A stretch of 63,740 bases of DNA, counting the filler. It is 8 parts of 8 records of this genome, joined end to end, with 100 filler letters (N's around TTAATTAATTAA, not from the genome) between each part and the next. Parts side by side here need not be neighbours in the genome. Positions count along the whole stretch, not along the records: positions 26,601 to 38,225 come from SRR31147125_38211; 7 more parts are not named here. One strand, given 5' to 3'. Numbering within the stretch: the stretch's first letter is position 1; the number at the start of each line of letters is the position of its first letter. This document shows positions 20,791 through 43,296 of this stretch, piece by piece. The notes beneath the pieces were generated by a model. It was not told the DNA's origin. It did no database searches and saw only the letters and a program-made list of their open reading frames with translations. The translations under genes and the position numbers were made by a program.

Positions 20791-20890
20791 NNNNNNNNNN
20801 NNNNNNNNNNNNNNNNNNNNNNNNNNNNNNNNNNTTAATTAATTAANNNNNNNNNNNNNNNNNNNNNNNNNNNNNNNNNNNNNNNNNNNN
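20791..20890. other. Artificial contig spacer
   Basis: N run with TTAATTAATTAA. Confidence 0.98.
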
Positions 20891-26500: not shown

Positions 26501-26600
26501 NNNNNNNNNNNNNNNNNNNNNNNNNNNNNNNNNNNNNNNNNNNNTTAATTAATTAANNNNNNNNNNNNNNNNNNNNNNNNNNNNNNNNNNNNNNNNNNNN
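26501..26600. other. Artificial contig spacer
   Basis: N run with TTAATTAATTAA. Confidence 0.98.
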
Positions 26601-26787
26601 CCCCCGAAGGCGCGTGTTTTTGCCAAAAAGGCAAAGTTTTCCAGGAATTTGCAACTTTAAATCAGCAAACAATTTCAATGGAACTATTGTCTTGTGTAAT
26701 TCAATAAAAAGTAGATAATTATCATTTGAATATTTGACCAATAGTTTATAATTTTAAAATATAAATTTTTTGTGGGTAAAACAAAAT

Positions 26788-27615
26788 ATGGATAAAGTTG
26801 TCTTATATGGAAAAGGCGGGATTGGAAAATCTACAATCGCGGCGAATGTAAGCGGAATTTTGGGATATCAGGGACGCAAAGTTCTGCACGTCGGTTGCGA
26901 TCCAAAACACGATTCTTCGACATTGCTAATTGGAAAAAGGCGAGTAAAAACAGTTATTAAGGAGCTTTTCTCCACTCCCGGAAATCGAGTTTCAAAAGAA
27001 CAAATAATTATGAAGGGAATTTACGACATCGATTGCATCGAAGCTGGAGGGCCGGAGCCGGGCGTTGGTTGCGGCGGTCGTGGAATAACTCGAATGTTCG
27101 AGGCTTTAACTGACCTTGGAATGTTTGAAGATGAAAAATACGATCACGCAGTTTTCGATGTTTTGGGCGATGTAGTTTGTGGCGGTTTTGCCGCTCCACT
27201 TCGATCCGGCTATGCAGAAAAGATTTTTATCGTAACTTCCGAGGAAATTATGTCGCTTTTTGCCGCAAATAACATTTGCAAGGCGGTTAAAAGATACGAA
27301 TCAAATGGCGTCGTTTTGGGCGGTTTAATCGCGAATATCCGCGATCTTGGTGAAGACGCAACTGTCGTTGAAAAATTTGCCGAAACAATCGGCACGAGAG
27401 TCATGACGGCCTTTGGTCGAGACAAAGTTTTCAGATCGGCGGAAAGGCAGTTAAAGCCGCTTGTGGCGATTGATGAAAACAACAAATTAGTCAATAGATT
27501 CAAAGATTTAGCAGATGACATGCTTGCCTTGAAAATGACTGATTGTGCTTCTCCAAATCCGCTTAGCGAAGATGCTTTTCATGAGTTTGTAGATAAACAT
27601 CACAAGGATTATTAA
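26788..27615 (+). CDS. NifH/BchL-family nitrogenase-like iron protein (group IV-type paralog)
   Basis: YGKGGIGKST, GCDPKHDS, EAGGPEPGVGCGGRG and DVLGDVVCGGFAAP; both [4Fe-4S] Cys ligands present. Confidence 0.93.
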   Translation: MDKVVLYGKGGIGKSTIAANVSGILGYQGRKVLHVGCDPKHDSSTLLIGKRRVKTVIKELFSTPGNRVSKEQIIMKGIYDIDCIEAGGPEPGVGCGGRGITRMFEALTDLGMFEDEKYDHAVFDVLGDVVCGGFAAPLRSGYAEKIFIVTSEEIMSLFAANNICKAVKRYESNGVVLGGLIANIRDLGEDATVVEKFAETIGTRVMTAFGRDKVFRSAERQLKPLVAIDENNKLVNRFKDLADDMLALKMTDCASPNPLSEDAFHEFVDKHHKDY

Positions 27616-29797
27616 TGGCGTTGGTTCGTTTCGATACAAACTCAAAAGCCACGTTTCGATCACTTGAAAAAGTTATCACAGCGGCTTTTTTGAAGTTAAA
27701 CCCCGGAAGTCTGATTAAAATCAAGTGCTTGCCTTTATCAAATGGCACACTCAGAATTCAATTCGATGATGCAATCAATCAAAGTTCCGCAATAGTCGAA
27801 TGGGGCGACATCGACCTGATCTCGGAAAAATCGCCTCGAAATAAATCCGCAGGTCGATTAATTCTCACTAGTGGAGACTCAGAATTTGGCAAAATTGCAC
27901 TAAAATCAGCCGGAGCTGGCTGGCTAATGACCCAAAAGATCCAAGATTCAACCTAATAAAATACCACAATAGAAATCTTCAAAACTTCATTTGTGACGAT
28001 CACGCAATGGATCGAATCATTGCAACAAGACTTGGAGTCGGCACAAGCAATATTTCCGATTTTATTTTTATCGAAGCTCATGAACAAACCGGCCCAAAAT
28101 ACAAGCTGGTGTTTGAAAAAAATGATAAAACTTCAATAAAAACATGTATTTATCCAAATCTGGTGAAAGAATCTGCACTGCTGCAAATCGGTTTGTTTGC
28201 AATAGAATTTGAACTGCATCAAAGCGATGGAACAAGAATCAAACTTGAAAACGAAAATGATATCAATGCTTTAGCAGATGATAATGCCAAACTTGCAATT
28301 GATACAATTTGCTTTTTACTTAATCGCTCGATTCATAAGGAAATGGCATTAAGCATTCCAGATGCTTCTGCATATAATCCTGATGGCGCGGGAGGCGATG
28401 AAGACAACACTTTTGAAGGCAAAGCCATATCAACGACCGATTTTTCGCCGGAAATCGCCTGGAGGCGATTTTTCACGCCTTTTGAAATAGAACGAGATGC
28501 GATTTGCGATTTCAGACCACAAGATAAATCAACAATGGTGCAACACGGAGAACTTGAGTGCAACTTCATTCAGCCAATTTTGAAAGATGCCGTCAGTTTT
28601 CATAAACCATTGTGGCGACTTGTTACCGATTCAGACACCGAAACACATGGATATATGACCTATCTCGACGATAACGACCTGATTATGGGCGAATCGGAAA
28701 AACTAGATGAGCTTCTTTCGAGAGTACGAAAAGCTCACACTGATGATGAATATATCTTTTTGAACGAAACCTGCGTATCAAAAATTATCGGAGAAGATAC
28801 TCCAGGAATTATCAGGCGGCATAAAAACGCCGGTGGTTCCTCGGTGCTTTATCTGGATATTTCCTTGCCTGGTCCAAGTTACATTATTTCCAATTTGCTT
28901 GAACAAATCAAGGATTTGACAATCGAGAAATTTGGCGAAGAAATTCTCACAAACAAAGAACCTCGATCAATTGCATTGATCGGCTATCCTCTGGATCGAT
29001 CCATGCAGGAATTACAGCAGTGGATCGGCAACATGGGAATCAGGAAAAGTGCAGCATTATTGCCACAGTTCGGCATTGATCCAGTCAAACAAGCACTTAG
29101 CTCCGAGCTTATTGTCGCATCTCAAGCAAGAGACTGGAACAAGATTGCCAGAGACATTTTTGTAATTGGCGACAAAAAGCACATTTCGCCGACCATGCCT
29201 TTTGGAATTAAAAACACATATAACTGGATTGTAGAAATTGCTGAAGAACTTGGAATTGACAATATAAAAAGAAAAGTAAAAACAGAAAAAGAAAAAGACT
29301 GGGATTATTTTTCAAATACATACCAGGAAAAACTTTCGGAATGCGGTGTAGCTTTTATCGCTGATATCAATGAGTTAGCTAGAATTATAAATCCTGCTTC
29401 TCTATTTGGAGTTCCTCTTTTATCTTTTCTTGATGAACTTGGTGTAAACATCAGCTTGCTTTTATACTCGAACAATCCGGATCATGATGTCACCAAAGCA
29501 AAACAAATGCTTTCCGAAACAATCGAGAATCAAAACAAGCTATCAATAAACGTTTTCAGTCAAAAAGATGAACTCTTCAACTTGCTAAAATCATCAGACA
29601 ATTTCCAGACTGTTTACTCGCAATATTCCTTTGACAGAAGACTATATCAGGCTGGAAAAACATCTTTCTCGCTTCTTGAAATGGAAAAAGGAATAAAAGG
29701 AGCAGAGAGAACAGCGAAAAAGATTATCTCACTTTGTAAATGGAACATGCCCAAAAAGTGGGGAAAATACATAAGCGCACAAGGTTGGTCGGAATGA
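27615..29797 (+). CDS. Nitrogenase component-1-like subunit with long N-terminal extension (about 727 aa if the frameshift at ~27902-27905 is corrected)
   Basis: DLIMGESEKLDELL, FLNETCVSKIIGED and PFGIKNTYNWIVEIA match the oxidoreductase/nitrogenase fold. The 596-aa frame is open back to 27872, and one added A joins it to the 113-aa ORF. TAATG overlap with the nifH-like stop. Confidence 0.75.
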
Positions 29798-31140
29798 ATA
29801 GTGTAGGCGGAGAATACGGTTTCAGAATGGAGATTCCCTATATGGCGGGAATCTACCTTGCAATAAACGCAATCAAAAACAGCTATCTGGTTGTAGATGG
29901 CCCAATGTGCGCTTTTTATAAAATCGAACAAATTCAGGGAAATCACGACCTTACATCGCAACTGGCAAGATTGGCTCTGCCTCATAGAATTGTTCATACA
30001 GAACTTGCGGTTAATGATGCCGTTATGGGCGAGGAAAAATCGGTTGTAGAAAAACTTGAGGGCGTTGATGGACTGGATGATTGTTCGGCAATATATTTGA
30101 CCGGATTGTCATCAGCAGTTTTAATTGGTCGGGATCAGGAAAGACTCGCGGCAAACTTCAAGAGCCAGCACGATAATCCTGTTTTGCCGATTAAATCTCG
30201 TACCCTTTCCGGTGATTGGCTTGATGGATGGGCGGAAACTCTTGAAATCACTGCGCAAAACATCCCGCTGGTTGAAAAAACAAGCAGTAAAAAAACGAAG
30301 ATTGGAATAGTTGGCAATCTGTTTTTACGAAACGAAGGCGACTCGATCGGCAATGTCAAAGAGCTTGAAGAGATTATAAAGGCTCTGGATGCCGAACCTG
30401 TTTCGATCTGGTTATCAGGACAAAGCTATGATGAACTTGGCGAAATAGGTCAGGCCGATCTTCTTGTTTCACTCCCATACGCAAAAAAAGCGGCTGAAAT
30501 TTTGCAGGAAAGAACAGGAGCGGACTTGATTGAACTCCCCCTGCCCTTTTCATGGCAACAAACAGAAGAATTCATCCTCCTGTTAGCTGAAAAACTGGAT
30601 AAAACAAATAAGGCTAAGACTTATATAAGTCAGGAATTATCACAACTAATTGATATCTCGATGTTTATCAGTGAAGAGCATCTTTTGATGAGTAAATGGA
30701 TGGTTCTCGGCGATCCGCATCATATGCGTGGATGGACGGAAATTGCGGCGAATGCCGGAGCCAAAATCGCCGGTTTGATTTCATCTACCCAACCTCATCA
30801 TATAGGTGGAGAAAAAATTGTATCTTCCGACAATAAAGAACACGAAATAAAATTTGGCAGCAATCCGGACTGGCACAAATTTGCAACGAATTTCATTGAT
30901 GAACGCGCCATTGATTTAGTGATAAGTAATGGATTTGGGTTTAACCTGCTAAACAGTCCTCGTGTCCTTTTCTATGAGTTTGGATATCCATGCTATTCCT
31001 ACCATGTTCCGATCCCGATTCCTGCTTTGGGATTCAAAGGCGAGGCTGTTATTCTTTCGAGAATAGGTGAACTTTTCCACAGAAAAAAGCTGCTCAACGC
31101 AGAAAGAAATTCCAGAAGAAAACCACACAAACATGGTTAA
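29794..31140 (+). CDS. Second nitrogenase component-1-like (NifK/BchB-like) subunit
   Basis: VVDGPMC, HTELAVNDAVMGEEKSV, LIGRD, GNVKELEEIIKALD, LPLPFSWQQTEEFI, EFGYP and LGFKG; ATGA overlap with the preceding stop. Confidence 0.82.
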   Translation: MNSVGGEYGFRMEIPYMAGIYLAINAIKNSYLVVDGPMCAFYKIEQIQGNHDLTSQLARLALPHRIVHTELAVNDAVMGEEKSVVEKLEGVDGLDDCSAIYLTGLSSAVLIGRDQERLAANFKSQHDNPVLPIKSRTLSGDWLDGWAETLEITAQNIPLVEKTSSKKTKIGIVGNLFLRNEGDSIGNVKELEEIIKALDAEPVSIWLSGQSYDELGEIGQADLLVSLPYAKKAAEILQERTGADLIELPLPFSWQQTEEFILLLAEKLDKTNKAKTYISQELSQLIDISMFISEEHLLMSKWMVLGDPHHMRGWTEIAANAGAKIAGLISSTQPHHIGGEKIVSSDNKEHEIKFGSNPDWHKFATNFIDERAIDLVISNGFGFNLLNSPRVLFYEFGYPCYSYHVPIPIPALGFKGEAVILSRIGELFHRKKLLNAERNSRRKPHKHG

Positions 31141-31229
31141 TTGTTGAAAACTCCACAGATGTTGAAAACTAAATTTTACATGTAATTTCGGAGGGTTAGA
31201 CTTCTTACCAACAGATTAGTAACAAATCT

Positions 31230-32729
31230 TTAAACACTTTCTCCACATGCGACCCACAGCATGCGTTCATCCATATCCTGATCTCTACCTTCGGCAAATT
31301 CCTTGCGAAACTGTTTTACAATACCAAAAAATTCCTTATCCGGAATTGCATCACCTTCGACGATGTATGGCAGGTTAAAAACATCAAGACTTTTATGAGC
31401 TTCTTCTGGAATACCGATTCCAAGAATATCCGAATCCAAATAAACAGCACTGTTTCTTGCAAGTTGAAATCTCTGGATTATTACATCATTGATATACCCT
31501 CGCCATTCATGTAGCCAGTCAAGAGTTTCTATAAAGTAATCAACAGAGAAAGTAGGAAGATCCAGCACAAACAAGTTCACGCCTATTCCTGCATGATTGC
31601 AAGCTATTAGCATATTTTCTGCCTGTTTTATTGTAATACCCTTTTTTACGGCGCGTAAAACGACACTCGAAGCAGACTCAAGCCCGGCAAACAAATATCT
31701 GCAACCTGCTTTGTGTATCAACTCACAGAAAACTTTTGTGTATTCTTTTTCAACTCGACAAAGAGCCGACCACTGGACATTTAAACCCCGATCAAGAATT
31801 TCTATGGATATTGCTTCCATCATTGCCGGACGAGTCGCATGTTCAGCAAAAAAGAAAGAATTAATTCCATGTCGTTTTGATAATTCCTCCATGAAATCAA
31901 CTACTTGTATCGGATCTCTTTCATGTATTTTGCTTTGTTTGACAGAGTGCCTACAAAACGTGCATTTGTCCCAATAGCATCCATAACTAGTTGCAATCGG
32001 CAACATATTTGAAGGATATATACTGACATCAAGGTCTTCAAAATCAGGTATTGGAATAGATCTTATCGGAACACGAGTTCCAACTTTGTTTATCTGTATT
32101 TCATTATCACTATCTCGCCATATCAATGATGGTACATTTTTTAAATCAGTGCCTATCAATGTAGGTTTATTCTCACAGTTCTGTACCAATTTCAGTAATG
32201 GTTTCTCTCCTGCAAAAGGTACTGCTCCATCTATATATTTGATATTGTTAAGGATTTCCGGCAGCATAGTTTCGGCAGCAGTTATCCAGGCACCTCCAAC
32301 CACGACAAAAACATTCGGATCAATCTCTTTAATAATCTTTGCAAGGATTATTGCAGGATAAAATTGCTTTAGGTCAAAAATAGAAATACCAACTATTTTG
32401 GCCGGATTTTTCTTGAACTTCTCGATGAAACTTAATTTATAAAAGGTGTTGTAGATTTGACTTGGCTTTTCTATGTAATTCTTTAATGCTTCGAGACTTT
32501 TGGATCTTTCTTCAATAGCTAATAAAGTTTTTATAAAAGCCGCTTCATTCGATTTCAAAACTTTTGGAAAAAAGTATTGATTGAAAACGACATTTAGATC
32601 CATCTGCCTTGCAGAAAATCCGTTTTTCTTAATATATCCAACCAGTTGAGGCACACCAAGCTCCGGCATCATGATCTCATCATTTGCAGGAGGCATTACC
32701 AACAAAATGGAATTTGTCTCTTTTTCCAC
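31230..32729 (-). CDS. B12-binding-domain radical SAM protein
   Basis: N-terminal LLVMPP...PELGVPQLVGY...VVVGGAW cobalamin-binding domain; SYGCYWDKCTFC CxxxCxxC; AGC...GLESAS..VL..VKKG. Confidence 0.92.
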   Translation of the reverse strand: MEKETNSILLVMPPANDEIMMPELGVPQLVGYIKKNGFSARQMDLNVVFNQYFFPKVLKSNEAAFIKTLLAIEERSKSLEALKNYIEKPSQIYNTFYKLSFIEKFKKNPAKIVGISIFDLKQFYPAIILAKIIKEIDPNVFVVVGGAWITAAETMLPEILNNIKYIDGAVPFAGEKPLLKLVQNCENKPTLIGTDLKNVPSLIWRDSDNEIQINKVGTRVPIRSIPIPDFEDLDVSIYPSNMLPIATSYGCYWDKCTFCRHSVKQSKIHERDPIQVVDFMEELSKRHGINSFFFAEHATRPAMMEAISIEILDRGLNVQWSALCRVEKEYTKVFCELIHKAGCRYLFAGLESASSVVLRAVKKGITIKQAENMLIACNHAGIGVNLFVLDLPTFSVDYFIETLDWLHEWRGYINDVIIQRFQLARNSAVYLDSDILGIGIPEEAHKSLDVFNLPYIVEGDAIPDKEFFGIVKQFRKEFAEGRDQDMDERMLWVACGESV

Positions 32730-32932
32730 TACGAACTCACTTATTTTTTATTAAACTCTATTTAAGTTTCGAGATTGTAGGATGAATTTATAAAGTTTGC
32801 AATGATTTATTACGCAAAAGTAAACCCGTTTTTTCCCATAGGTTTAGTGCCAAAAATTGACGTTTCTAATGCGCTGTGTTATTTTCTTTTCTTTTGAGAT
32901 GATTTCACAATTAGATTCTTTTGGAGGGAAAC

Positions 32933-35533
32933 ATGCCTGAATCAACTAACAGGCCATTTGTAGTTATGAAATTTGGTGGAACCAGCGTTTCCTCGCTGAC
33001 AACATGGGAGAACATTGCCGGCTTGCTGAAAAAGCGAATCGCCGAAGGCTATAAACCGATTATGGTCGCATCAGCCCTTTCCGGCATTTCTAACACGCTT
33101 GAAGATTTGATAAAGAGCGTTTCCACAGGTAAACATGAAGAAATCATCAAACAAATAAAACAGAAGCATATCAAACTAGCCAACGACCTTGGTGTTGATG
33201 GCGAAGAATTATTGAAGGGCTTTTTTACAAGTCTCGAAAGATTGTCTTTAGGTGCATCATTAATTCAGGAAGTAAGCCCAAAACTGCATGCACAGATTAT
33301 GGCGCATGGTGAACTCATGTCCACGACTCTCGGTGCTGCGTATCTTAATAAAAATGATGTTTCCTGCTCATGGGTTGACGCAAGAACCGTTCTTTGTGCA
33401 AGCAATCCAGAAACCGAAGGACAACGCAAGCACTTCATGTCTTCAGCCTGCAATTGCGATCCGGATGATACAACCACAAGCATGCTAAAAGCCAAAGACA
33501 CATCAGTAATACTGACTCAGGGATTTATCGCTAACGACGATCAGGGTGCGACTGTCCTGCTCGGTCGTGGTGGATCTGATACATCAGCTTCATACATCGC
33601 TGCCAAAATAAGTGCAGAAAGATGCGAAATCTGGACTGATGTTCCCGGAATATACACAGCGAATCCCAAACAAATACCTGCCGCAAGACTGCTTAAAAGT
33701 TTGTCATATGACGAGGCTCAGGAAATCACATCGACAGGAGCCAAGGTTCTTCATCCCAGATGCATTCAGCCCGTCATGATGCATGACATTCCGCTGCACG
33801 TTTATTGCACTGATGATCCTGACACAGAAGGCAGCGTCATTTCAAATAACGCTCCGGAAACTATCGCTCAGGTAAAAGCAATTTCAACTAAAACCAACGT
33901 AATGCTGATTTCGATGGAAACTATCAGCATGTGGCAGGAAGTCGGCTTTTTGGCGAAAGTCTTCAACTGCTTCAAAAAGCATGGATTATCTGTCGATCAG
34001 GTTTCGACATCGCAAACAAATGTTTCAGTTACACTCGATGCAGCCGCAAACGTTCTTGCCAAGGAAACGATGGACGCTCTTATGGCAGATTTGAACGAAT
34101 TCTGTAGTGCCGAATCCATCGACGATTGTGCCTTGGTTTCACTTGTCGGCAGAAACATTCGATCCATTCTGCATAAGCTTGGCCCGGCACTGGAAGTTTT
34201 CGGCGAGCAGAAAATCCATCTGGTCACACAAGCTGCGAATGATTTAAACCTTGCTTTTGTCGTCGCCGAAGAAAACGCAGACAGACTTGTCAGAGAATTA
34301 CACGGACTATTGTTCAAGCATCGCAAAGAAGATGACTTGTTCGGCCTGACATGGGAAGAAGTGTTCGTCAAAGAGAAAGAACAGAGAGTAATCGGCAAAA
34401 GCGCATGGTGGAGAGCCAAGCGAGAACAATTGCTGGCCTATATGGACAAAACTCCGGCATTTGTATATGACGAAGAAACACTCCTCGAACAAGTCAGTGA
34501 ACTCAATACACTTAAATCAGTAAACCGATTTTTCTATGCAATGAAGGCGAACAATAATCCTCAAATCCTGAAAATGTTTTACGACTCAGGATTGGGCTTT
34601 GAATGCGTAAGTCCCGGTGAAGTTTCTCATATTTTCGATCTTTTCCCGGAAATCTCACCAGACAGGATTATTTACACACCAAACTTCGCACCGAAATCGG
34701 AATACGAATTCGGTTTTGAAAAAGGCGTTTTTGTAACTCTCGATAATTTGTTCCCGCTTGAAAAATGGCCGGAACTCTTTGCAGGCAAAGAAGTCTTTTT
34801 ACGTCTGGATACAGGTAAAGGCGCGGGACACCACAAATATGTCCATACCGCCGGAGCGCATTCCAAGTTTGGCATTTACCCGGAACAAATGGATTACCTG
34901 CAAGAATTGCTTGAAAAATGCGGAGCCAAAGTAATCGGTCTTCATTCTCATATCGGAAGCGGAATTCTGGCCGCCGGAAAGTGGAAACAAGCAGCAACCT
35001 TCCTTTGTGAAAACTCGGAAAAATTCAAGGATGTCAAATACATCGACCTTGGTGGAGGCTTGGGAATTCCGGAAAAGCCGGGACAAAACAAGCTTGACCT
35101 TGAAGCCGTGGACAAAAATCTGGCAGAAATCAAAAGAGCTTATGCCGATGTAGAGCTATGGATGGAACCGGGACGTTTTCTTGTCGCTACCGCCGGAGTA
35201 TTGCTCGCGCAAGTTACACAAACCAAACAAAAAGGACCGTTCAACTACATTGGTGTAAACAGTGGAATGCATACTCTGATCCGTCCGGCTCTATATGGAG
35301 CGTATCATGAAATCGTCAACATCACGCATTTGGATGAAGATCGCGATATCGAAGCCAATGTCGTCGGTCAAATCTGTGAAACAGGTGACACTCTCGGTTA
35401 TGACAGAAAGCTACCCAAAACAAGCGAAGGCGACTTGATGCTTATCGCAACGGCTGGGGCATACGGTCGTGCTATGAGTTCTTCATACAACATGCGACCA
35501 CCGGCAACAGAATACATACTCAAAAAAGGCTAA
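32933..35533 (+). CDS. Bifunctional aspartate kinase / diaminopimelate decarboxylase (LysC-LysA fusion)
   Basis: MKFGGTSV, LGRGGSDTSA and WTDVPG plus ACT region; then FYAMKANNN, HSKFG, DLGGG, EPGRFLV, GQICETGD and GAYG. Confidence 0.95.
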   Translation: MPESTNRPFVVMKFGGTSVSSLTTWENIAGLLKKRIAEGYKPIMVASALSGISNTLEDLIKSVSTGKHEEIIKQIKQKHIKLANDLGVDGEELLKGFFTSLERLSLGASLIQEVSPKLHAQIMAHGELMSTTLGAAYLNKNDVSCSWVDARTVLCASNPETEGQRKHFMSSACNCDPDDTTTSMLKAKDTSVILTQGFIANDDQGATVLLGRGGSDTSASYIAAKISAERCEIWTDVPGIYTANPKQIPAARLLKSLSYDEAQEITSTGAKVLHPRCIQPVMMHDIPLHVYCTDDPDTEGSVISNNAPETIAQVKAISTKTNVMLISMETISMWQEVGFLAKVFNCFKKHGLSVDQVSTSQTNVSVTLDAAANVLAKETMDALMADLNEFCSAESIDDCALVSLVGRNIRSILHKLGPALEVFGEQKIHLVTQAANDLNLAFVVAEENADRLVRELHGLLFKHRKEDDLFGLTWEEVFVKEKEQRVIGKSAWWRAKREQLLAYMDKTPAFVYDEETLLEQVSELNTLKSVNRFFYAMKANNNPQILKMFYDSGLGFECVSPGEVSHIFDLFPEISPDRIIYTPNFAPKSEYEFGFEKGVFVTLDNLFPLEKWPELFAGKEVFLRLDTGKGAGHHKYVHTAGAHSKFGIYPEQMDYLQELLEKCGAKVIGLHSHIGSGILAAGKWKQAATFLCENSEKFKDVKYIDLGGGLGIPEKPGQNKLDLEAVDKNLAEIKRAYADVELWMEPGRFLVATAGVLLAQVTQTKQKGPFNYIGVNSGMHTLIRPALYGAYHEIVNITHLDEDRDIEANVVGQICETGDTLGYDRKLPKTSEGDLMLIATAGAYGRAMSSSYNMRPPATEYILKKG

Positions 35534-35551
35534 ACGAAACAACATAAAACG

Positions 35552-35587
35552 AAAGAGGCTGCGTCGATCAGATACAGCCTCTTTTTT
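35552..35587. terminator. Bidirectional terminator between convergent genes
   Basis: aaagaggctg...cagcctctttttt. Confidence 0.8.
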
Positions 35588-35600
35588 GTTTATGTACAAT

Positions 35601-36572
35601 CTATGACTTCAATGCATTCATCCTTGAACTAACTTCCTCAAATTCGCCCATAATTTCCTGAACGATATCTTTTGCAGGCATTACCTTTTTCATGAGTCCA
35701 ACAGATTGCGAACAAGAGATAGTTCCTGCATTCACATCACCGGTTTTAAACATCTTTCTTGCAGCTTCGCCTGAAACATATGGAATTATGTCATCAAGTC
35801 CACCACCCTTTTTCTCGATTTCAATCGTCTTTTTGGTAGGCTCGTTCAACCAGCATCTATGAGCAAAACCGATGCTACGCATAATGATATCAGTATCAAG
35901 TTCGGTTGCATCGACCATTGCCTGTTTTAAGTTATCATGAATCGGGCATTCTTCCGAAAGCATGAACCTTGAACCGACAATACCGGCTTCCGCTCCAAGT
36001 GACAAAATGGAATAAAGTCCACGACCATCGGCAATACCACCACCACCGATAACAGGAACATCGATAGCGTCAACAGTCGATGGCACCAAAACGAGAGTTG
36101 TCACGTTGAGATTGCCTGTTGCTCCTCCGTTTTCGTATCCAACCACGGTGACTGCATCGGCTCCCATTGCTGCAACCTTTTTAGCGTATCTGACTCCTAC
36201 ACATTTATGAATCCATGTCATTCCGTATTCTTTAAACAGCGCAACCAGATCGGCAGGCGCACCAAAACCGGAAGTTTCTACAATATTTACACCTTCGCTT
36301 GATAACACTTCCAGAAAAGCTTTATTGTCTGGAGGAGCCAGCATCGGGAAAAGATTGATATTTACAGCGAACGGTTTATCGGTCAAATCCTTGGTTTTTT
36401 TGATTTCATCACGAAGTTTATCTGTTTCCTTGAAAATAGCCGAAGCGATAATGCCCAAAGCACCCGCATTGGAAATGGCAGAGACAAATGGAGCCAAAGA
36501 CAGATCCATCATTGTTCCGCCAATAATCGGATATTCGATTCCCAAAAGTTCGGTAATTTTGGTTTTAATCAT
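35601..36572 (-). CDS. Nitronate monooxygenase / FabK-like flavin oxidoreductase
   Basis: TELLGIEYPII, SNAGALG, TDKPFAVN, WIHKC and GGGIADGRG. Confidence 0.88.
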   Translation of the reverse strand: MIKTKITELLGIEYPIIGGTMMDLSLAPFVSAISNAGALGIIASAIFKETDKLRDEIKKTKDLTDKPFAVNINLFPMLAPPDNKAFLEVLSSEGVNIVETSGFGAPADLVALFKEYGMTWIHKCVGVRYAKKVAAMGADAVTVVGYENGGATGNLNVTTLVLVPSTVDAIDVPVIGGGGIADGRGLYSILSLGAEAGIVGSRFMLSEECPIHDNLKQAMVDATELDTDIIMRSIGFAHRCWLNEPTKKTIEIEKKGGGLDDIIPYVSGEAARKMFKTGDVNAGTISCSQSVGLMKKVMPAKDIVQEIMGEFEEVSSRMNALKS

Positions 36573-36815
36573 TTATTACTCCCTGAAATTTATAAAACAC
36601 AAAAATTGATTCACAAATCAATAACAAATTAACACACCCTAACTCCCGTAGCAAACACATAATCAGGAAAATGAGACAGGTAGCAAGAATTAAATTCTCT
36701 CACTTTTTATCATGTCTCATCGATTTATGTATTTTGCTTTATTGATCTGACTATGCGTCTGACTATATTATTATTGAACACCTTGGATGCTTTTTGAAAA
36801 GAAAAAGAAGTCAAT

Positions 36816-38225
36816 TCACGGACCACCACGTACACAACGCACGGTAAGCTTTGTTGTTTTTTTCTCCACCGCGACTCGGCCATAATACACATTCAAAACC
36901 CAGGACCGCCCTCTGTAACTAAAGTCGCATGGGTCGGTTACGTTTGAATGAGATGTGGATGACCAGTACTCTCCGCCCAGTTCATTGTCGGGCATTGCGG
37001 TGGCCGGCATATTCAGTGTTGTATCAACCATACTTCCCAACTCGTGGATATTTGGCAATCGCCAATCAGTGAACGTTGCATAGTCCAGTTCTTCACAATA
37101 CGCCAATGCCTGCTGCCATGTTTTTCCAGTCTCACGAGTGCCTTTCCAGATAAGATCCGTAATTTTATCTTTGATCGTAGTTTGTCCGTTGGTTTCTTCG
37201 GTAACGAAACGAGTCCCTGCTAAAGCCTCTTTGACTCGTGGCAACAAAATTGGCTCACCCCTTACACAACGGGCATAACGGTAACCGGTACTGGTATCGG
37301 GAGCGTTATTAGCAGAACCGCCCCCTTTCACGTACCAGTGGGAGTTGGCGGTCTGAATGTGAGGTGAAGCGGACCAGAAGAAACTATTCGGGTCCATTGT
37401 TGGAAACACGGTAAGATCGGCTCCGGATTTCGTCCAGTTGTCGTAATTGTACATTTCATGCGTCATGATGCTATGTAGCTCAAACCGCTTGGGTAAACGC
37501 CAATCGCTATAATTGGCATAATCGGTAAGATTTTCGCAGTAATCATTTGCCGTTTGCCAGTTTATTTCGGAGATGAACGTTCGTTGCCACATCAAGCCTG
37601 TTAAACTGTCTGTCACCACCTCATCAGTACTTACGGTTGGCAAATTCTCACATGGGGTTTCAACTCCACTCGAATTATAGCAGGTCAATGTCTGAAGGTT
37701 GGTCGGATATTGCGCGGCCTGACCACAGCCGGGAATCGCAGGATTATCACCGCAATTAGCAGGAATACCACCAGGACATTCTATTTCATCATAAGGCTCA
37801 GCCCACGTATAGCATTTATCTTTTTGGGTAGGTGGAACAGGCCAGCAGATAATATGACCGCATACGCTCGTATCGACTTCTCCATCAAATTCTAATTCCT
37901 GCTCAGCTTCCACATCAGGCTCAAGTTCAACTTCAGGTTCAGGTTCGAGATCGACTTCGGGCTCAAGTTCAGGCTCAAGTTCGGCTTCAGTGTCCTGTTC
38001 AATTTCTTTATCTATTTCTATATATATTTCGGTTTCCGTGGTTTCCTCTGTGTCACTGTCTATATCGCCATCAATTGGGTTGTCTAAATCTACTTCTGCA
38101 ACACAATCACATTCCAATTCCTGCTCTGCTTCGACCTCAGGTTCCAATTCAAGTTCGACTTCAGGTTCAATTTCGGTTTCAGTGTCCTGTTCACTTTCTT
38201 TATCTGCTTCAAGATCCAATTCGGT
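36816..38225 (-). CDS. Protein with an acidic repeat stalk and two DUF1566 (C-type-lectin-like) domains; 5' truncated
   Basis: DSLTGLMWQ...A.DYCENL..ANYSDWRLP...EL and DKITDLIW...YCEELDYATFTDWRLPNIHEL...YWSST...VRCVR. Confidence 0.87.
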   Translation of the reverse strand, partial: TELDLEADKESEQDTETEIEPEVELELEPEVEAEQELECDCVAEVDLDNPIDGDIDSDTEETTETEIYIEIDKEIEQDTEAELEPELEPEVDLEPEPEVELEPDVEAEQELEFDGEVDTSVCGHIICWPVPPTQKDKCYTWAEPYDEIECPGGIPANCGDNPAIPGCGQAAQYPTNLQTLTCYNSSGVETPCENLPTVSTDEVVTDSLTGLMWQRTFISEINWQTANDYCENLTDYANYSDWRLPKRFELHSIMTHEMYNYDNWTKSGADLTVFPTMDPNSFFWSASPHIQTANSHWYVKGGGSANNAPDTSTGYRYARCVRGEPILLPRVKEALAGTRFVTEETNGQTTIKDKITDLIWKGTRETGKTWQQALAYCEELDYATFTDWRLPNIHELGSMVDTTLNMPATAMPDNELGGEYWSSTSHSNVTDPCDFSYRGRSWVLNVYYGRVAVEKKTTKLTVRCVRGGP

Positions 38226-38325
38226 NNNNNNNNNNNNNNNNNNNNNNNNNNNNNNNNNNNNNNNNNNNNTTAATTAATTAANNNNNNNNNNNNNNNNNNN
38301 NNNNNNNNNNNNNNNNNNNNNNNNN
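38226..38325. other. Artificial contig spacer
   Basis: N run with TTAATTAATTAA. Confidence 0.98.
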
Positions 38326-38326
38326 A

Positions 38327-40219
38327 AAAATCAGACTAAAAAACTTTAAAGGGATCGATCAATTCGAGGTCTTCCCGAACGGAGAGGATATCACGCTTCA
38401 TGGTGATAATGCATCCGGAAAGACTACCATTGCCGATGCCTTTTTCTGGGGAATATGGGGTAAGGACAGTGCCGGAAAAGCCAATTTTCAGCTGAAGCCT
38501 CTGGGTGATACTGGAGAAGAGATCCATAACCTCGATACCGAGGTCGAGCTGGGTCTCACCCTGGATGGCCAACCCTTGGTGCTCATGAAACGGTTTAAAG
38601 AAGATTGGATAAGAAAAAGAGGAAGTACCAGGAAGGAATTCACCGGTCACACCACCGATTATTTCATCGATGGCGTTCCGTCTAAAAAGAAGGAATACGA
38701 CGATAAAATCAAGAGCATCATTGATGATGCCATCTTCCGACTACTCGCCAATCCATTGGAGTTTAATTTGATCAAATGGCAGGATCGTCGAGCCATTCTC
38801 ATGCAGATCTGCGGGGATGTCGATGACTCAGATGTCGTTGAGGCAGATGCCGCCCTGGCACCCCTTCAAAGTATTCTCAATGGTTGCCCCATTGATGATC
38901 ACAAGAAAAAGGTCCAGGCCAAAAAGCGAGATATCAATAAAGAGTTGGAGCAGATCCCGGCCAGAATCGATGAGTTGAAATCGGCTATTCAGGCCATTGA
39001 ACAACCAGATTTGAAAGAGAAAGCCAGGCTCAAGAAAACCCTTGATGAATGTACGGCTGAACTGAAATCTCTAACCGACAATACAGCCATCTCTGAGAAG
39101 GAAGTCCGGATCAATGAGATTGAATCCGAGATTCTGAAGACCCGAAATGCTGCACCGGATGTCATCGCTCTGAGAAAGCCGATTCTTGATGATATTGCCA
39201 GCTTTGAATCCAAGTGTCGGGAAAAAGTCGCACAGATCGAAACCCTCGAACACGACATCGACAAAGAACAGAAACGCCTTCTTATCAATAATGATGCTGT
39301 CGAGAAGATACGGAAGCGGTGGTACACGGAAAATGAGAAGGCTTTCACCCATTCCGGTACCTGCCCCACCTGCGGTCAGGACATCCCGGAAGATCAGATG
39401 AAAGAGACGGAAGAACGGTTTAATGCCAAAAAGGCTGAGGAATTGGCAAAAATCACTGCAGAAGGAAAAGAACAGGCCAACGCAGCCGCAACCAGAGCCA
39501 AGACTATTAAGGACGAGACAGCCCAAGTTAAGGCTTTGTCAGCTGAGATTGAAAAACTCGACAAGGCTATCAACGCCAAAAAGGATGAGGTGGAAGCGAT
39601 AGTTCCCCAGGTGGACCAGGATACCATCGATTCATTGACCAAGCAGAAGAATGTGCTCCGGATGGAGATTGATGCTCTTAAAAACGGATCGAGCGTCAAG
39701 AGTCAAGACCTGGAAAAGAAGATCGAAGCAATTGAGACCGATCTGGAAATCATTGCCGGTCAGGAAGCGGAAGTCAAAGCCGGGGAAAAGTCCCAAAAGA
39801 GAATTGAAGAGCTGGAAGACAGAGAAAAAGCCCTTGCAAAAGAGTTTGAGAGCCTCGAGCAAGAACTCTTTCTCATCGAGAAGTTTGTCGTTACCAAGGT
39901 AAACCTGCTTGAAGGAAAAATCAATTCTAAATTCAAGATGGCTCGTTTTAAACTCTTCTCAGAACTGTTGAATGGGGGACTCTCTGAATGCTGCGAGACG
40001 CTGTGTGGGGGAGTCCCGTACAACCATGGGCTCAACACCGGTGCCCGGATCAATACCGGCATCGACATCATCAATACCCTGTCGGACCATTACGGCTTTC
40101 AATGTCCGATTTTCGTGGACAACTCAGAGTCCATCACCAACATCATTGACACTGACTCTCAACTCATCCGGCTGGTGGTGGATCCCAATCATAAAAAACT
40201 GACTCAATTGGAGATATAA
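38327..40219 (+). CDS. Phage SbcC/Rad50-like coiled-coil ATPase; 5' truncated
   Basis: Frame open from the contig edge: LKNFKGI...GDNASGKTT (Walker A), zinc hook CPTCG, LNTGA signature and IFVDNSE (Walker B). Confidence 0.9.
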   Translation, partial: KIRLKNFKGIDQFEVFPNGEDITLHGDNASGKTTIADAFFWGIWGKDSAGKANFQLKPLGDTGEEIHNLDTEVELGLTLDGQPLVLMKRFKEDWIRKRGSTRKEFTGHTTDYFIDGVPSKKKEYDDKIKSIIDDAIFRLLANPLEFNLIKWQDRRAILMQICGDVDDSDVVEADAALAPLQSILNGCPIDDHKKKVQAKKRDINKELEQIPARIDELKSAIQAIEQPDLKEKARLKKTLDECTAELKSLTDNTAISEKEVRINEIESEILKTRNAAPDVIALRKPILDDIASFESKCREKVAQIETLEHDIDKEQKRLLINNDAVEKIRKRWYTENEKAFTHSGTCPTCGQDIPEDQMKETEERFNAKKAEELAKITAEGKEQANAAATRAKTIKDETAQVKALSAEIEKLDKAINAKKDEVEAIVPQVDQDTIDSLTKQKNVLRMEIDALKNGSSVKSQDLEKKIEAIETDLEIIAGQEAEVKAGEKSQKRIEELEDREKALAKEFESLEQELFLIEKFVVTKVNLLEGKINSKFKMARFKLFSELLNGGLSECCETLCGGVPYNHGLNTGARINTGIDIINTLSDHYGFQCPIFVDNSESITNIIDTDSQLIRLVVDPNHKKLTQLEI

Positions 40220-40222
40220 CCC

Positions 40223-41080
40223 ATGGCAAATAACAACCTACCCGCAATCAGAAAGACAATCACCGCTGACAGCATGCAGGCCATGATCCGTCAGCGTATC
40301 GGAGAAAAGGCCGGAGCATTCACCACCAGTGTTTTGGATCTTATTGGAGACAACAACTACCTGCAAAAATGCGATCCCAATCTTGTCATCAAAGAAGCTA
40401 TCAAGGCTCCAGCCTTGGATCTTCCGGTAAACAACAATCTCGGGTTTGCCTACATCATTCCTTACGGAAACAAGCCGCAGTTCCAGATTGGCTACAAAGG
40501 CTTCGTGCAATTGGCTATTCGTACCGGCCAGTATAAGCACCTGAACGCTGACGCTGTTTATGAAGGCGAGGTTTTTGAGATTGACAAAATCAAAGGAACC
40601 ATGAAGATCACCGGCCAAAAGACCAGTGAAAAGGTCGTGGGATACTTTGCTTATATGGAGCTGATCAACGGCTTTGAAAAGGCTATCTTCTGGACAAAAG
40701 AGCAGGTCACCACGCATGGAAAGAAGTTCTCCAAGACCTTCAACAACGGCCCATGGAAATCAGATTTTGATGCCATGGCAAAAAAGACCGTCTTGAAAAG
40801 CCTCATCTCCAAATACGGCCCCCTCTCCATTGAAATGACCACTGCTTTGAGCTCGGATACTGCCGACTTTAAAAATCATGATGGCCATGTTCAAGACGAC
40901 ATTGACCAGAACGCAAATCAGGATGTCATAGACATCACGCCGGACACGTCCCAGGCAAACCCCACCCCACCACCACCGGGGGCAGAGGGTGAAGCGCCCA
41001 TGACCGAAGAGGAAAAAGCGGAGATCATGGAACAGGAAGCGGTCAAATCAGCACCTGCAGTCAACACACCGCCATTCTGA
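40223..41080 (+). CDS. recT: RecT-family single-strand annealing recombinase
   Basis: LGFAYIIPY, QFQIGYKGFVQLAIRTGQY and PWKSDFDAMAKKTVLK. Confidence 0.92.
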   Translation: MANNNLPAIRKTITADSMQAMIRQRIGEKAGAFTTSVLDLIGDNNYLQKCDPNLVIKEAIKAPALDLPVNNNLGFAYIIPYGNKPQFQIGYKGFVQLAIRTGQYKHLNADAVYEGEVFEIDKIKGTMKITGQKTSEKVVGYFAYMELINGFEKAIFWTKEQVTTHGKKFSKTFNNGPWKSDFDAMAKKTVLKSLISKYGPLSIEMTTALSSDTADFKNHDGHVQDDIDQNANQDVIDITPDTSQANPTPPPPGAEGEAPMTEEEKAEIMEQEAVKSAPAVNTPPF

Positions 41081-41787
41081 TGATTGACATCCACGTCATA
41101 GCCACCGGCTCTTCCGGCAATTGCTACCGCATCACAGATGGTTCAACCACTATCATGATAGAGGCGGGGATTCAGTTCCGGAAGATCCGGGAGGCATTCA
41201 ACTTTAAACTTTCCGAGGTTTCCGGGTGCCTGGTGTCTCATGAGCATGGTGACCACTCCAAAGCAGTGAATGATCTCTTGAATGCCGGGGTTGACTGCTA
41301 CATGAGTCAGGGCACCGTCAAAGCTGTGGTGTCAGAGTCGGGGCATCACCGGGTAAAGATCGTTAAACATGGTGATCAATTCTGCCTTGGGACATTCCAA
41401 GTGCTGGCGTTTACCACAGAGCACGACGCGGCAGAACCTCTTGGTTTCCTTCTTGCCAGCGGAGAGGACAAAATTCTTTTTGCCACGGACACGTATTTTA
41501 TCCGTAATCGATTCCTGGGGTTAACTCATATCATCGTAGAGGCGAATTATTGCAGGGCGATCCTTGAGGAAAATATCGCATCGGGAGCGGTACATGCGGC
41601 GTTGCGCCCACGACTGATCAAGTCCCACTTTGAAATTGAGAATGTGAAAAAGTTCTTGCTGGCAAATGATTTGTCAAAAGTGCGGGAGATCCACCTGATC
41701 CACATTTCCAGGGATAATGGGTATCCGGAGAGGTTTAAGTTAGACATCCAAAAAATAACAGGGAAGCCGGTCTACATTCATCAGTGA
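41080..41787 (+). CDS. MBL-fold metallohydrolase (probable partner exonuclease)
   Basis: TGSSGNCY, SHEHGDH, HDAAEP, FATDT, EANY and LIHIS; TGATG overlap with recT. Confidence 0.9.
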   Translation: MIDIHVIATGSSGNCYRITDGSTTIMIEAGIQFRKIREAFNFKLSEVSGCLVSHEHGDHSKAVNDLLNAGVDCYMSQGTVKAVVSESGHHRVKIVKHGDQFCLGTFQVLAFTTEHDAAEPLGFLLASGEDKILFATDTYFIRNRFLGLTHIIVEANYCRAILEENIASGAVHAALRPRLIKSHFEIENVKKFLLANDLSKVREIHLIHISRDNGYPERFKLDIQKITGKPVYIHQ

Positions 41788-41793
41788 GGGAAA

Positions 41794-41973
41794 ATGAGCG
41801 ACGCAAAACCAAGAAGAGTTAAAGCGAAGATTACTAGTCTAGTGACAGAGATTGCCATTGTGGAATTAGACAGAGATGGAGGCGTGGTAGAGGTGGAAGA
41901 TACTCATGAGACCTTGGAGTACGAAGATACGGAAATTCACGATATTCGTACAGTACTTTCGGTTCATCCATAA
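41794..41973 (+). CDS. Small phage protein (59 aa)
   Basis: Hand translation MSDAKPRRVKAKITSLVTEIAIVELDRDGG...VLSVHP*; RBS gaggg; fills the gap. Confidence 0.65.
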   Translation: MSDAKPRRVKAKITSLVTEIAIVELDRDGGVVEVEDTHETLEYEDTEIHDIRTVLSVHP

Positions 41974-41986
41974 ATTAGGTGGTGCC

Positions 41987-42259
41987 ATGGGATATATGGA
42001 ACAATTAGCGGATCAGGCAATAGAGGCGGGGCTTTATCACCAAAAAGAATTCATGGATCAGGTTGTTTTGGAAACGACTCAAAAGGCCAGTAAAGCCGCG
42101 GCGAAGTGGTTTTATGAAACCTTTGAAGATGATCTGCTTGAGAAAATGGAGGAAAAGGGGCTGATAGCTCAAGCGGAAGGCTTCAGCACAAGTGCCGTCG
42201 CAGAGCTTCAAGCAACCATTGAAATTGAAATCCTCGGCAAGCTTGCTGAAGAAGCATAA
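41987..42259 (+). CDS. Phage hypothetical protein (90 aa)
   Basis: RBS aggtgg before ATG 41987; ends just before a terminator. Confidence 0.65.
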   Translation: MGYMEQLADQAIEAGLYHQKEFMDQVVLETTQKASKAAAKWFYETFEDDLLEKMEEKGLIAQAEGFSTSAVAELQATIEIEILGKLAEEA

Positions 42260-42262
42260 ACA

Positions 42263-42296
42263 AAAAAGCCCCGTCATTGGCAGATGACGGGGCTTA
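42263..42296. terminator. Terminator-like hairpin in the phage early region
   Basis: aaaaaa-gccccgtcat-tggcag-atgacggggc-tt. Confidence 0.7.
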
Positions 42297-42332
42297 CATC
42301 AAGATACTTTATGGCAATGAAAGGAAACAGGC

Positions 42333-42542
42333 ATGACCATCGAAAGAAACAAAGGCGATTTTGAGAAAGCCCTATCGACAATGGAAGACCGATTGGGCGA
42401 CCTGTCCGGCATCATCCACGAGGACATCCAGAGCGATCTGAATAACGTTGTTGATGAGTACGCTCATCTTCAATCTGACATCGAAGAGATGATGTCTCGG
42501 ATTGAAGAGCTTGAAGAAAAGCTTGAAAGGGCCGAATCATGA
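42333..42542 (+). CDS. Small acidic coiled-coil phage protein
   Basis: 69-aa ORF with RBS aagga; heptad pattern. Confidence 0.65.
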   Translation: MTIERNKGDFEKALSTMEDRLGDLSGIIHEDIQSDLNNVVDEYAHLQSDIEEMMSRIEELEEKLERAES

Positions 42543-42811
42543 AGAAATTAGGATTATCTCCACTCCCGACTGGACTTCCGCCTGGAGCAAAGCATGAGTG
42601 TAATGCAATGCGCAAAGAGAGCTACAGGAATGCGGTTATGGATGTCTTGAATTTCTCGGCAGATGCCATGAGTGATGAACTGTTTATTAAGGTTGTCGAT
42701 GAGTTCTTCCCCGCCATGAAGAGCGCCGGATTGGTTTGTCTGAGACATATCGTTAAAAACGCTGAAAGCCCCATCAGCGAGAGATATTTGAGGATAAAAG
42801 AAAATGGCTGA
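42539..42811 (+). CDS. Phage hypothetical protein
   Basis: ATGA overlap with the preceding ORF. Confidence 0.55.
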   Translation: MKKLGLSPLPTGLPPGAKHECNAMRKESYRNAVMDVLNFSADAMSDELFIKVVDEFFPAMKSAGLVCLRHIVKNAESPISERYLRIKENG

Positions 42812-42888
42812 AGAAAGCAAGTCTTATTCGAAAAGGTTGAGAGACGCATCCAGAGCAGAAAACGTGGACACGATGGAGAGATAAAACA

Positions 42889-43230: not shown

Positions 43231-43296
43231 AGGGCGATGTGAGTAACTCTGGATCGCATCATAAAGAATGGATGAATGAGTAAATGGGGTGTTTAG

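Follow-up and report, generated by a model that had tools for sequence, protein, structure and literature searches.

A nitrogenase-like reductase locus, probably self-contained and of the Group VI type, in an uncultured Myxococcota-like bacterium

CfbCD, the Ni-sirohydrochlorin a,c-diamide reductive cyclase, serves the synthesis of coenzyme F430. Other nitrogenase-like (NFL) reductases of known substrate are the isethionate reductase IsrBHDK and the methylthio-alkane reductase MarBHDK, assigned to Group IV and involved in sulfur salvage. According to the text of Morimoto et al. 2024 (PMC11423573), IsrD keeps Cys88 only, Cys154 being replaced by Pro or Ser, IsrK keeps all three of its cysteines, and three are kept also by MarD. 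The NifH paralogs of Group VI, which have radical S-adenosylmethionine (SAM) genes as neighbours, have been identified in Elusimicrobia, 2 Gracilibacteria and 14 Myxococcales genomes, as reported in the main text of Meheust et al. 2020 (10.1101/765248), and the group is still listed as uncharacterised in section 7 of a Chemical Reviews article of 2026 (PMC13474568). In the literature covered beyond these papers, supplements apart, nothing assigns a function to Group VI or describes an extension of its D subunit. Here we describe a locus probably of this kind, nflHDK, which resides in a DNA stretch of 63,740 nucleotides, filler included (the window), on the contig SRR31147125_38211 (positions 26601-38225).

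The whole set of data is best explained by a self-contained three-subunit NFL reductase of the Group VI type, made by NflH, NflD and NflK, and this is the reading that we regard as probable. As part of the same explanation, the host is probably an uncultured Myxococcota-like bacterium related to the Myxococcales metagenome-assembled genome (MAG) SURF_8. The locus is genuine, had been rightly recognised in a preliminary description of this DNA, and adds a further member to a family in print since 2020; it is less novel than that description had implied. The latter had stated that a nitrogenase paralog occurs along with radical SAM genes in Elusimicrobia, Gracilibacteria and Myxococcales, which matches the text of Meheust et al., and that such paralogs have no demonstrated substrate, with which section 7 of the 2026 article agrees.

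The nflHDK genes and their placement

The three genes lie on the + strand. The nflH gene (26788..27615) encodes an Fe protein of 275 residues matching PF00142 at E 2e-80. A motif scan located the P-loop GKGGIGKS at residues 8-15, and Cys95 (in a GVGCGGRG context) and Cys131 (in a DVVCGGFA context) are the equivalents of NifH Cys97 and Cys132. As the preliminary description had it, the Fe protein is complete: NflH is an ATPase of the NifH type, with the two [4Fe-4S] cysteines in place. The nflD gene (27615..29797, ~728 codons) encodes an alpha-type subunit, and nflK (29794..31140) a beta-type subunit, which measures 448 residues from the start in the ATGA overlap. The two couplings earlier noted between the genes were both located, TAATG at 27613-27617 joining H to D and ATGA at 29794-29797 joining D to K. 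NflK matches PF00148 at E 2e-40 in a scan which used the open reading frame (ORF) from an upstream ATG (29740-31140). In the window nflD is split into an ORF of 113 residues (27615-27956, + strand), which begins at the TAATG overlap and has no family match, and an ORF of 596 residues (28007-29797, + strand), which matches PF00148 at E 8e-26 over residues 214-508 only. Both of the subunits earlier called very divergent component-1 proteins match this family, but the D-like gene is not a single ORF as assembled. Its split, due to a 1-nt difference in a run of A, and the long N-terminal extension of its product are features absent from the preliminary description.

Six related loci were retrieved by a scan of genome contigs with the six closest K sequences. 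L001 and L006 reside in Myxococcales bacterium SURF_8 (genome G055), L002 in a Myxococcota MAG, L003 in an Anaeromyxobacteraceae MAG, L004 in a Myxococcota MAG consisting of a complete 5.18-Mb chromosome (G001), and L005 in a MAG labelled Oligoflexales. By sequence comparison, L006 is the ortholog of the window locus. It features the same H-D-K order followed by an aspartokinase fusion, and the products are identical to those of the window at 71% (H), 49% (K), 37-38% (D) and 59% (fusion) of the positions.

None of the curated Nif, Bch or Cfb equivalog cut-offs is reached by H, D or K. On the NCBIfam models, NflH scores (bits/cut-off) 281/394 for nifH (TIGR01287), 279/402 for CfbC, 196/345 for BchL and 185/331 for BchX. 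NflD and NflK score at most 40 bits on models with cut-offs of 268-1229, including BchN (33/420), BchB (19/490) and, for D, CfbD (TIGR03282, 25.6/268). NflH is 35-42% identical to the NifH genes listed on plasmids, and a tblastn search of 72,556 plasmids with K gave 3 weak matches, two of them NifK at 20% identity and one unannotated. The K family profile best matches AnfK and NifK chains (2.6e-27). With K as the query, a full HMMER scan of 1.84 billion representatives yielded 464 relatives at E<=0.001, of which 211 are at E<=1e-30; the top one is 43% identical. The nearest K cluster in the ESM Atlas is mostly made by Elusimicrobiota (score 0.95), which is a lead only; among the cluster members of 10 K-like representatives, one organism name was found, Myxococcales (the L001 protein), and no Elusimicrobia label.

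Reference sequences for the trees were taken from plasmid records: NifH, NifD and NifK of Nitratidesulfovibrio vulgaris, Clostridium butyricum and Sinorhizobium meliloti, NifH of Bradyrhizobium, NifE of C. butyricum, and BchL/N/B and BchX/Y/Z of Sulfitobacter. The H tree includes 24 rows and the D/K tree 47 rows, the latter with D/K pairs from 17 of 26 NFL loci; a careful search was used for both. In the H tree the four NifH references form a clade (100/99) with the window H outside, and the window H pairs with that of L006 (100/99) and then with that of L004 (88/91). In the D/K tree two separate clades hold the 18 D-likes (100/99) and the 18 K-likes (95/95), respectively, both apart from NifD/E (100/99), NifK (100/100) and from the Bch rows, four in number. 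In both halves of the tree a 7-row subclade unites the window with L001-L006 (D 97/96, K 100/100). In this phylogeny, a check which the preliminary description had proposed with a wider set of references, the window H, D and K all fall outside NifH, NifD/E, NifK and Bch; its view of a nitrogenase-like enzyme, a reductase of something other than N2 lying outside the characterised clades, agrees with curated models, ligands and trees alike.

Metal-cluster ligands were analyzed in alignments of the 18 D-likes with three NifD and of the 18 K-likes with three NifK. Positions are given in what we take to be the Azotobacter numbering. In the D-likes, the Cys62 column is a gap in all 18, the Cys88 column holds Cys in 17 and the Cys154 column in 18; Cys is found in the Cys275 column of none, and His in the His442 column of 3 (Leu in the window). 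In the K-likes, the Cys70 column is a gap in all 18, the Cys95 column always holds Cys (Cys39 in the window), and the Cys153 column never does (Ser in the window). A Cys residue is found one position after the latter column in three of the five closest database representatives (P0002-P0004). In wider alignments only two cysteines, both of the P-cluster type, are invariant across 25 D-likes, and one across 25 K-likes. As judged from these alignments, the window D and K keep three of the six P-cluster cysteines (D Cys88-, D Cys154- and K Cys95-like), and neither of the FeMo-cofactor ligands. By analogy with the NB-cluster of the dark-operative protochlorophyllide oxidoreductase (DPOR), which has three Cys plus one Asp, this points to a single [4Fe-4S]-type D/K cluster with one non-Cys ligand. 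The numbering matches that quoted by Morimoto et al. 2024.

The frame break in nflD was analyzed by comparison with P0001, an intact homolog of 711 residues, 37% identical to the D-like protein, which aligns across both the 113-residue and the 596-residue ORF. In a three-frame translation against P0001, homology shifts frame near 27915-27940, and a homopolymer of four A residues occurs at 27934-27937 (+ strand). X1, the only public run carrying this stretch and not recorded as an RNA run, has contigs that were compared over 27300-28600; one of them spans 27888-28091, and its sole difference is an extra A behind 27933 (A5 instead of the A4 of the window). The additional residue fuses the two frames into one gene of ~728 codons, and no other stops are found. 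The break is thus most likely a homopolymer indel, either of the assembly or at the strain level, and not a sign of gene decay; since the X1 contig has a depth of 3.9 only and the run may be the source sample itself, the comparison is suggestive rather than conclusive.

The D-like protein carries an extension of ~250 residues ahead of the nitrogenase-like domain. The AlphaFold2 model of P0001, made from 25 aligned D-likes, has a mean predicted local distance difference test score (pLDDT) of 82. Its C-terminal part (~450 alignment columns) matches NifE (9onk_A, E 1.3e-13) and NifD, as well as MarD (9d9u_A, E 6e-13) and ChlB (2xdq_B, E 2e-11). Searched against solved structures, the D profile matches NifE at 9e-31, MarD, as the second best, at 1.4e-30, and DPOR subunits near 1e-13. 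P0001 residues from about 10 to 235 are confidently predicted to fold as two alpha/beta modules (pLDDT 87 and predicted template-modelling score 0.86, when modelled alone). Foldseek gave no significant match of the extension in the PDB (best E 0.011, probability 0.12), and the best score of VIA-align in wide mode (Z 5.8, SPLUNC1; 4.2-4.8 for BPI, latherin and CETP) is below a meaningful level. The predicted extension is accordingly left as a region that matches no known fold, and a new fold is not claimed. In a 25-row alignment, the stretch before P0001 residue 240 measures 222-307 residues in 14 D-likes and 104-160 in 10, the 25th row being the truncated piece from the window. Since it is present across these rows, the extension is a feature of the Myxococcota clade examined, and not of this gene alone. 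Word-index searches with the D-like protein, either as a single sequence or as a 7-row profile, found P0001 only; 8000 candidates were scored in each, and the result is no evidence of rarity. A scan of metagenome contigs with P0001 gave 233 pattern matches, none of which was confirmed, and in the ESM Atlas the best scores of the D-like piece (0.84-0.85) fall on generic Oxidored_nitro clusters, and are leads only.

Radical SAM genes and NFL loci

A gene on the - strand (31230-32729) converges on nflK across a gap of 89 nt. It encodes a radical SAM protein of 499 residues (PF04055, 42.5 bits, cut-off 29.5), apparently B12-type (class B-like), with the three-cysteine motif C251-x4-C256-x2-C259. 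For the B12-binding domain (PF02310) the score of 22.8 bits falls short of the required 32.1. The best NCBIfam matches are all B12-type radical SAM families, none at cut-off (top TIGR03975, 107/282 bits). The earlier claim of a cobalamin-dependent radical SAM gene converging on the 3' end holds for the radical SAM core and the orientation, but the B12 domain stays sub-threshold. As it runs towards nflK and away from the aspartokinase gene which follows, the radical SAM gene must make a transcription unit of its own.

No radical SAM genes were found in the six loci of the window subclade, where none of the 70 ORFs scanned matched at E<=1e-4 (69 of 74 called ORFs, plus the K match coordinates, which replaced one ORF called on the wrong strand). 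A different picture emerged from 20 other Myxococcota loci hosting NFL paralogs, analyzed up to 7 kb on either side of K (178 of 189 called ORFs scanned): radical SAM genes are found in eight of them (L041, L044, L045, L046, L047, L050, L051, L052). L041 has one at each side of HDK, L051 two, and L047 four, along with a SPASM protein. The five subclade genomes carry 50-79 radical SAM genes each, about one per 70 kb; with that density as a rough background, the occurrence in 8 of 20 loci has P ~0.03. The association of radical SAM genes with the other Myxococcota NFL loci is real. Proteins of ~1000 residues with two radical SAM domains are encoded directly after, or overlapping, the end of nflK at L041:3959-6907, L046:8208-11375 and L050:4024-7026; they are candidates for a conserved partner of that NFL branch.

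The radical SAM gene of the window is a different case. Its product has no blastp match at E<1e-5 among the called ORFs of the 26 NFL loci. It matches 138 of the 401 Myxococcota-phylum genomes analyzed at E<=1e-15, and the best matches are found in G025 (40% and 38% identity) and G006 (31%); those of G025 share a contig with an NFL locus, but lie >1.4 Mb away from the nearest one. A K-like match is found in the neighbourhood of none of its 15 best matches, and no NFL genes were found around three of its homologs (22 of 31 called ORFs scanned). In G001 and in SURF_8, no match is found at E<=1e-15. An ORF of 459 residues which converges on nflK in L004 was considered as a diverged copy, and rejected (blastp E 8.1). 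The linkage assumed in the preliminary description is therefore not supported for this gene, to which the refuting condition given there applies, as its best homologs lie away from NFL genes and no radical SAM gene is found at the six closest loci; the neighbourhood survey which it had suggested supports the general notion at 8 of 20 other loci, but not among the closest ones. On balance the pairing is probably incidental, with no constant part for this gene in the system next to which it lies.

Related genomes and surroundings of the locus

The aspartokinase/diaminopimelate decarboxylase fusion lies behind nflK both in the window (32921..35533, + strand; NF006515, 1210 bits, cut-off 802) and in SURF_8 (L006:11452-14067). 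The fusion was considered as a member of the pathway and rejected, as it is a curated housekeeping equivalog, syntenic in one of the six related loci. In the window, the radical SAM gene, on the opposite strand, sits between nflK and the fusion, which looks like an insertion in this lineage or a loss from the other. The sequence upstream of the window nflH is beyond the edge of the contig (187 nt away); in L006, the region upstream of nflH features DsrC and DsrMKJOP-like genes, and no radical SAM gene. These genes (L006:712-6773; Nitrate_red_gam, CCG/Fer4, Fer4_11 and NrfD families) are located directly upstream of nflH.

H adjoins D/K in two of the six subclade loci only. In SURF_8, two D/K pairs are accompanied by a single true NifH-like gene; a second, weak NifH-like stretch (G055:C36:14952-15692) has an internal TGA and scores ~50 bits in pieces, and may be a remnant. 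The complete genome G001 has two PF00148 genes only, the D and K of the operon, and one true NifH-like gene. NifB was found at cut-off in none of the five subclade genomes, ALAD in all five, and a CobN/Mg-chelatase-type protein in one. L002 encodes, ~3.7 kb upstream of its D/K pair, a NifX/NafY-type protein of 138 residues (L002:286-702; PF02579, E 3e-20), in a genome with no NifB above cut-off.

A profile of the six K sequences matches 70 of the 401 genomes at E<=1e-10, and 34 of them have at least two matching places. G399, G359 and G069 have four full-length K-like places each, all >300 bits; these are places, not copy numbers. Scores of 487-683 bits are restricted to the five genomes already found, and every other genome scores at most 351 bits. 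In 3 of the 20 other loci, carbamoyltransferase genes (Carbam_trans_N plus Carbam_trans_C) lie at most 7 kb away from NFL genes (L040:2288-3982, L051:48-2546, L054:5053-7185).

The window is not one molecule, as it consists of 8 contigs joined by N44-TTAATTAATTAA-N44 spacers (5561-5660, 15339-15438, 20791-20890, 26501-26600, 38226-38325, 43937-44036, 57830-57929). GC content varies from 0.34 to 0.53 in 2-kb bins, and given this spread the bin may mix organisms; genes on the other contigs cannot serve as context for the operon. The operon contig measures 11.6 kb, and the ATG of nflH, at 26788, lies 187 nt from its start, against the ~190 nt given earlier. The genes of the contig were listed from ORFs and Pfam matches. 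No nifB, nifE, nifN, bch or cfb genes were found by Pfam on this contig, nor did a scan of 34 ORFs from the seven other contigs find any, and the preliminary description, which had seen no nifB/E/N, bch/chl or cfb genes on the contig, was correct in this respect. A FabK-like NMO gene (Pfam) is found on the - strand of the operon contig, and on the same strand a gene (36816-38219) that reaches the contig end encodes a protein of 467 residues with acidic repeats (PF07603, Lcl_C, E 3e-47). This protein features a long E/P/D-rich repeat at the N-terminus and two Lcl_C domain matches. The short contig 38326-43936 has a RecT gene (40223-41080, E 5e-47) amid ORFs with no family match, and may be phage-derived. 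A scan of 26601-33100 found 13 promoter-like sites against 16.2 expected and 9 terminator-like sites against 5.0 expected (sd 2.3), neither count being clearly above chance; neither type of site occurs in the gap between nflK and the radical SAM gene.

Proposed function, alternatives and known systems

In the mechanism that we propose, an NflH dimer would hydrolyse ATP and feed low-potential electrons into one [4Fe-4S]-type cluster between D and K, whose ligands, like those of the DPOR NB-cluster, would be three Cys and one residue other than Cys. An organic substrate bound in D/K, and not N2, would be reduced by this cluster, while the two-module extension of D, ~250 residues long, may provide an added binding surface for the substrate or for a partner protein. 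N2 is almost certainly not the substrate. We moderately favour a small organic molecule that is not one of the standard tetrapyrrole intermediates. A tetrapyrrole, which is the published guess, would be a good deal less likely, and something else less likely again. No tetrapyrrole-biosynthesis families were recognised at the 26 loci scanned, and the neighbours found there are varied, including radical SAM proteins, carbamoyltransferases, methyltransferases, glycosyltransferases, FAD amine-oxidase-type proteins and sensor kinases. As neighbours vary and several paralogs coexist in one genome, a diversified family of small-molecule reductases fits better than a single enzyme of cofactor synthesis, and the genomes with four places, along with the varied neighbours, disfavour a single housekeeping role in cofactor supply. 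Rather than enzymes of cofactor biosynthesis, Myxococcota NflHDK might even be diversified ATP-driven reductases of very low potential for small-molecule chemistry, on natural products or lipids, the D extension being a new domain for binding substrates or carriers and the window group working alone, without radical SAM proteins. This is a speculative proposal to which we assign a low probability; the weak likenesses of the extension are to lipid-binding proteins of the BPI/SPLUNC type (Z 4.2-5.8).

Several points weigh against the reading of the locus as a stand-alone Group VI-type reductase. The assignment draws on shared sequence features, on the published occurrence in Myxococcales and on an ESM Atlas lead, and the trees hold no CfbCD, Mar, Isr, Nfa or Elusimicrobia Group VI sequences. 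The putative cluster type and the suggested role of the extension derive from alignments and from the predicted model of P0001, not from the window's own protein. The repair of the D frame comes from one contig of depth 3.9, in a run that is possibly the source sample. ALAD is present in all five relatives' genomes, hence tetrapyrrole precursors are available. ORFs in the compared loci were called by a simple script, and small or oddly composed genes may be overlooked. Radical SAM genes directly adjacent to H, D or K (<200 nt, or overlapping) are found in 6 of the 20 other loci, against a rough ~3% expected per locus (P ~1e-5). A lineage-specific functional link, in which the radical SAM protein encoded 89 nt from nflK is a real partner, is accordingly a tentative alternative to incidental pairing, its weight reflecting the enrichment in other loci set against the lack of conservation here.

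The main competing explanation, which is that of the preliminary description, assigns the reductase and the adjacent B12-type radical SAM enzyme to one pathway, in which for example a radical SAM methylation or rearrangement is followed by ATP-driven reduction, leading to a new cofactor or metabolite. The closeness of the two genes speaks for it, as does the presence of radical SAM genes within 7 kb in 8, and in direct contact in 6, of the 20 other loci. The main text of Meheust et al. 2020 (10.1101/765248) reports Elusimicrobia Group VI loci with up to 13 radical SAM genes, some with B12 domains, and the characterised IsrBHDK also couples an NFL and a radical SAM protein, according to the text of PMC11423573. 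The genes of the window are however convergent, in separate transcription units; none of the six closest loci has a radical SAM gene, and the L004 ORF converging on nflK is unrelated. The window radical SAM protein is matched neither at the 26 NFL loci (E<1e-5) nor, at E<=1e-15, in the closest related genomes, G055 and G001; its best homologs lie away from NFL genes, and with 50-79 such genes per relative genome chance neighbours are not rare. A joint pathway is therefore regarded as possible but doubtful. Since association with radical SAM genes is frequent yet facultative, and involves different radical SAM types, the two steps are probably separable for study.

Three other explanations carry less weight. 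If the nflD frameshift were real, the operon would be decaying and the locus a pseudogene remnant; the break is indeed present in the window as assembled, and X1 has a low depth (about 2-4). An independent contig mends the frame with one A in a homopolymer, however, ~728 D-like codons show no further stops, and the H and K genes are undamaged, their products being conserved in L006 (71% and 49% identity), which makes decay improbable. Sulfur salvage by a Group IV enzyme, either IsrBHDK or MarBHDK, is suggested by the report of Isr in Myxococcota, with a radical SAM protein and HDK (text of PMC11423573), and by MarD being the second-best solved match of the D profile (E 1.4e-30). Yet the cysteine signature is opposite to that given there for Isr, and MarD is said to keep three; Mar requires the NifB-like MarB, and NifB reaches cut-off in none of the five relatives' genomes; no sulfonate or taurine transporter is found on the contig; and a long D extension is not described in the text of the Isr and Mar papers. 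This explanation is very unlikely. Least probable, to the point of being negligible, is that the locus encodes a true nitrogenase in cryptic form or assists N2 fixation. The H-D-K gene order and the 35-42% identity of H to plasmid NifH would fit such a role, but only three of six P-cluster cysteines and no FeMo-cofactor ligands appear to be kept, all Nif equivalogs (nifH, nifD, nifK, nifE, nifN) are far below cut-off, the proteins fall outside the Nif clades in the trees, and the relatives have no NifB, the complete genome among them lacking also NifE/N.

The stand-alone, Group VI-type reductase thus remains the preferred reading, and the locus narrows the approach to the function of Group VI without solving it. 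In the nitrogenase superfamily, Group VI is the only named branch that lacks a known substrate, product or cofactor (section 7 of PMC13474568), and relatives of the window K are widespread in Myxococcota, with matches in 70 of the 401 genomes. G001, with one H, one D, one K and no NifB, NifE or NifN, represents a minimal H-D-K form and a clean candidate for heterologous expression. The D extension is a structural feature open to testing, and a non-tetrapyrrole substrate, if confirmed, would widen the known chemistry of nitrogenase-like enzymes.

NflH scores nearly the same on the CfbC and nifH models (279 and 281 bits), and simple [4Fe-4S] chemistry on an organic substrate would be common to CfbCD. 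CfbD is however a homodimer with no K, whereas the window has a separate K-like gene; CfbC (279/402) and CfbD (25.6/268) are both below cut-off, and the host is a bacterium, not a methanogen. DPOR (BchN/BchB; ChlN/ChlB) and the chlorophyllide oxidoreductase (COR; BchY/BchZ), the enzymes of Group V, likewise combine an ATP-driven Fe protein with a heteromeric catalytic component. Another probable trait in common is one [4Fe-4S] cluster placed between the subunits and bound by three Cys and a fourth ligand other than Cys, in a protein that has no complex cofactor. The cysteines are distributed differently, two in D and one in K here, three in N plus an Asp in B in DPOR. In contrast to DPOR and COR, the window H is below the BchL and BchX cut-offs and outside the Bch rows in the tree, and bch/chl genes were found at none of the 26 loci.

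IsrBHDK (Group IV-F), as described in the text of Morimoto et al. 2024 (PMC11423573), is a serious look-alike; it shares with the locus simple Fe-S clusters, which are predicted here, the lack of FeMo-cofactor ligands and the company of a radical SAM protein, and is reported in Myxococcota. Isr has however one Cys in D and three in K, against two in D and one in K in the window. The isrB gene is co-directional, located upstream of H and BciD-like, whereas the radical SAM protein of the window is apparently of the B12 type; Isr is reported in a sulfonate-transporter context, and no transporter was found on the 11.6-kb contig, whose edge lies 187 nt upstream of nflH.

Group VI is the closest of the described systems, with some differences. 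The window ortholog group (the window plus 6 loci from 5 genomes) usually has no radical SAM neighbour, H is not adjacent in four of its six loci, and its D extension, of ~105-300 residues, is not mentioned in the text of the Group VI paper, supplementary figures aside. The likeness is found in the window H, with the P-loop, both cluster cysteines and ~40% identity to NifH; in the divergent D and K, which keep three P-cluster cysteines here, against no more than four out of six in the group, and neither Cys275 nor His442; in the lack of NifB (none of five relatives' genomes); in the Myxococcales-type genomes which host these genes; and in the frequent presence of radical SAM genes at the other Myxococcota NFL loci.

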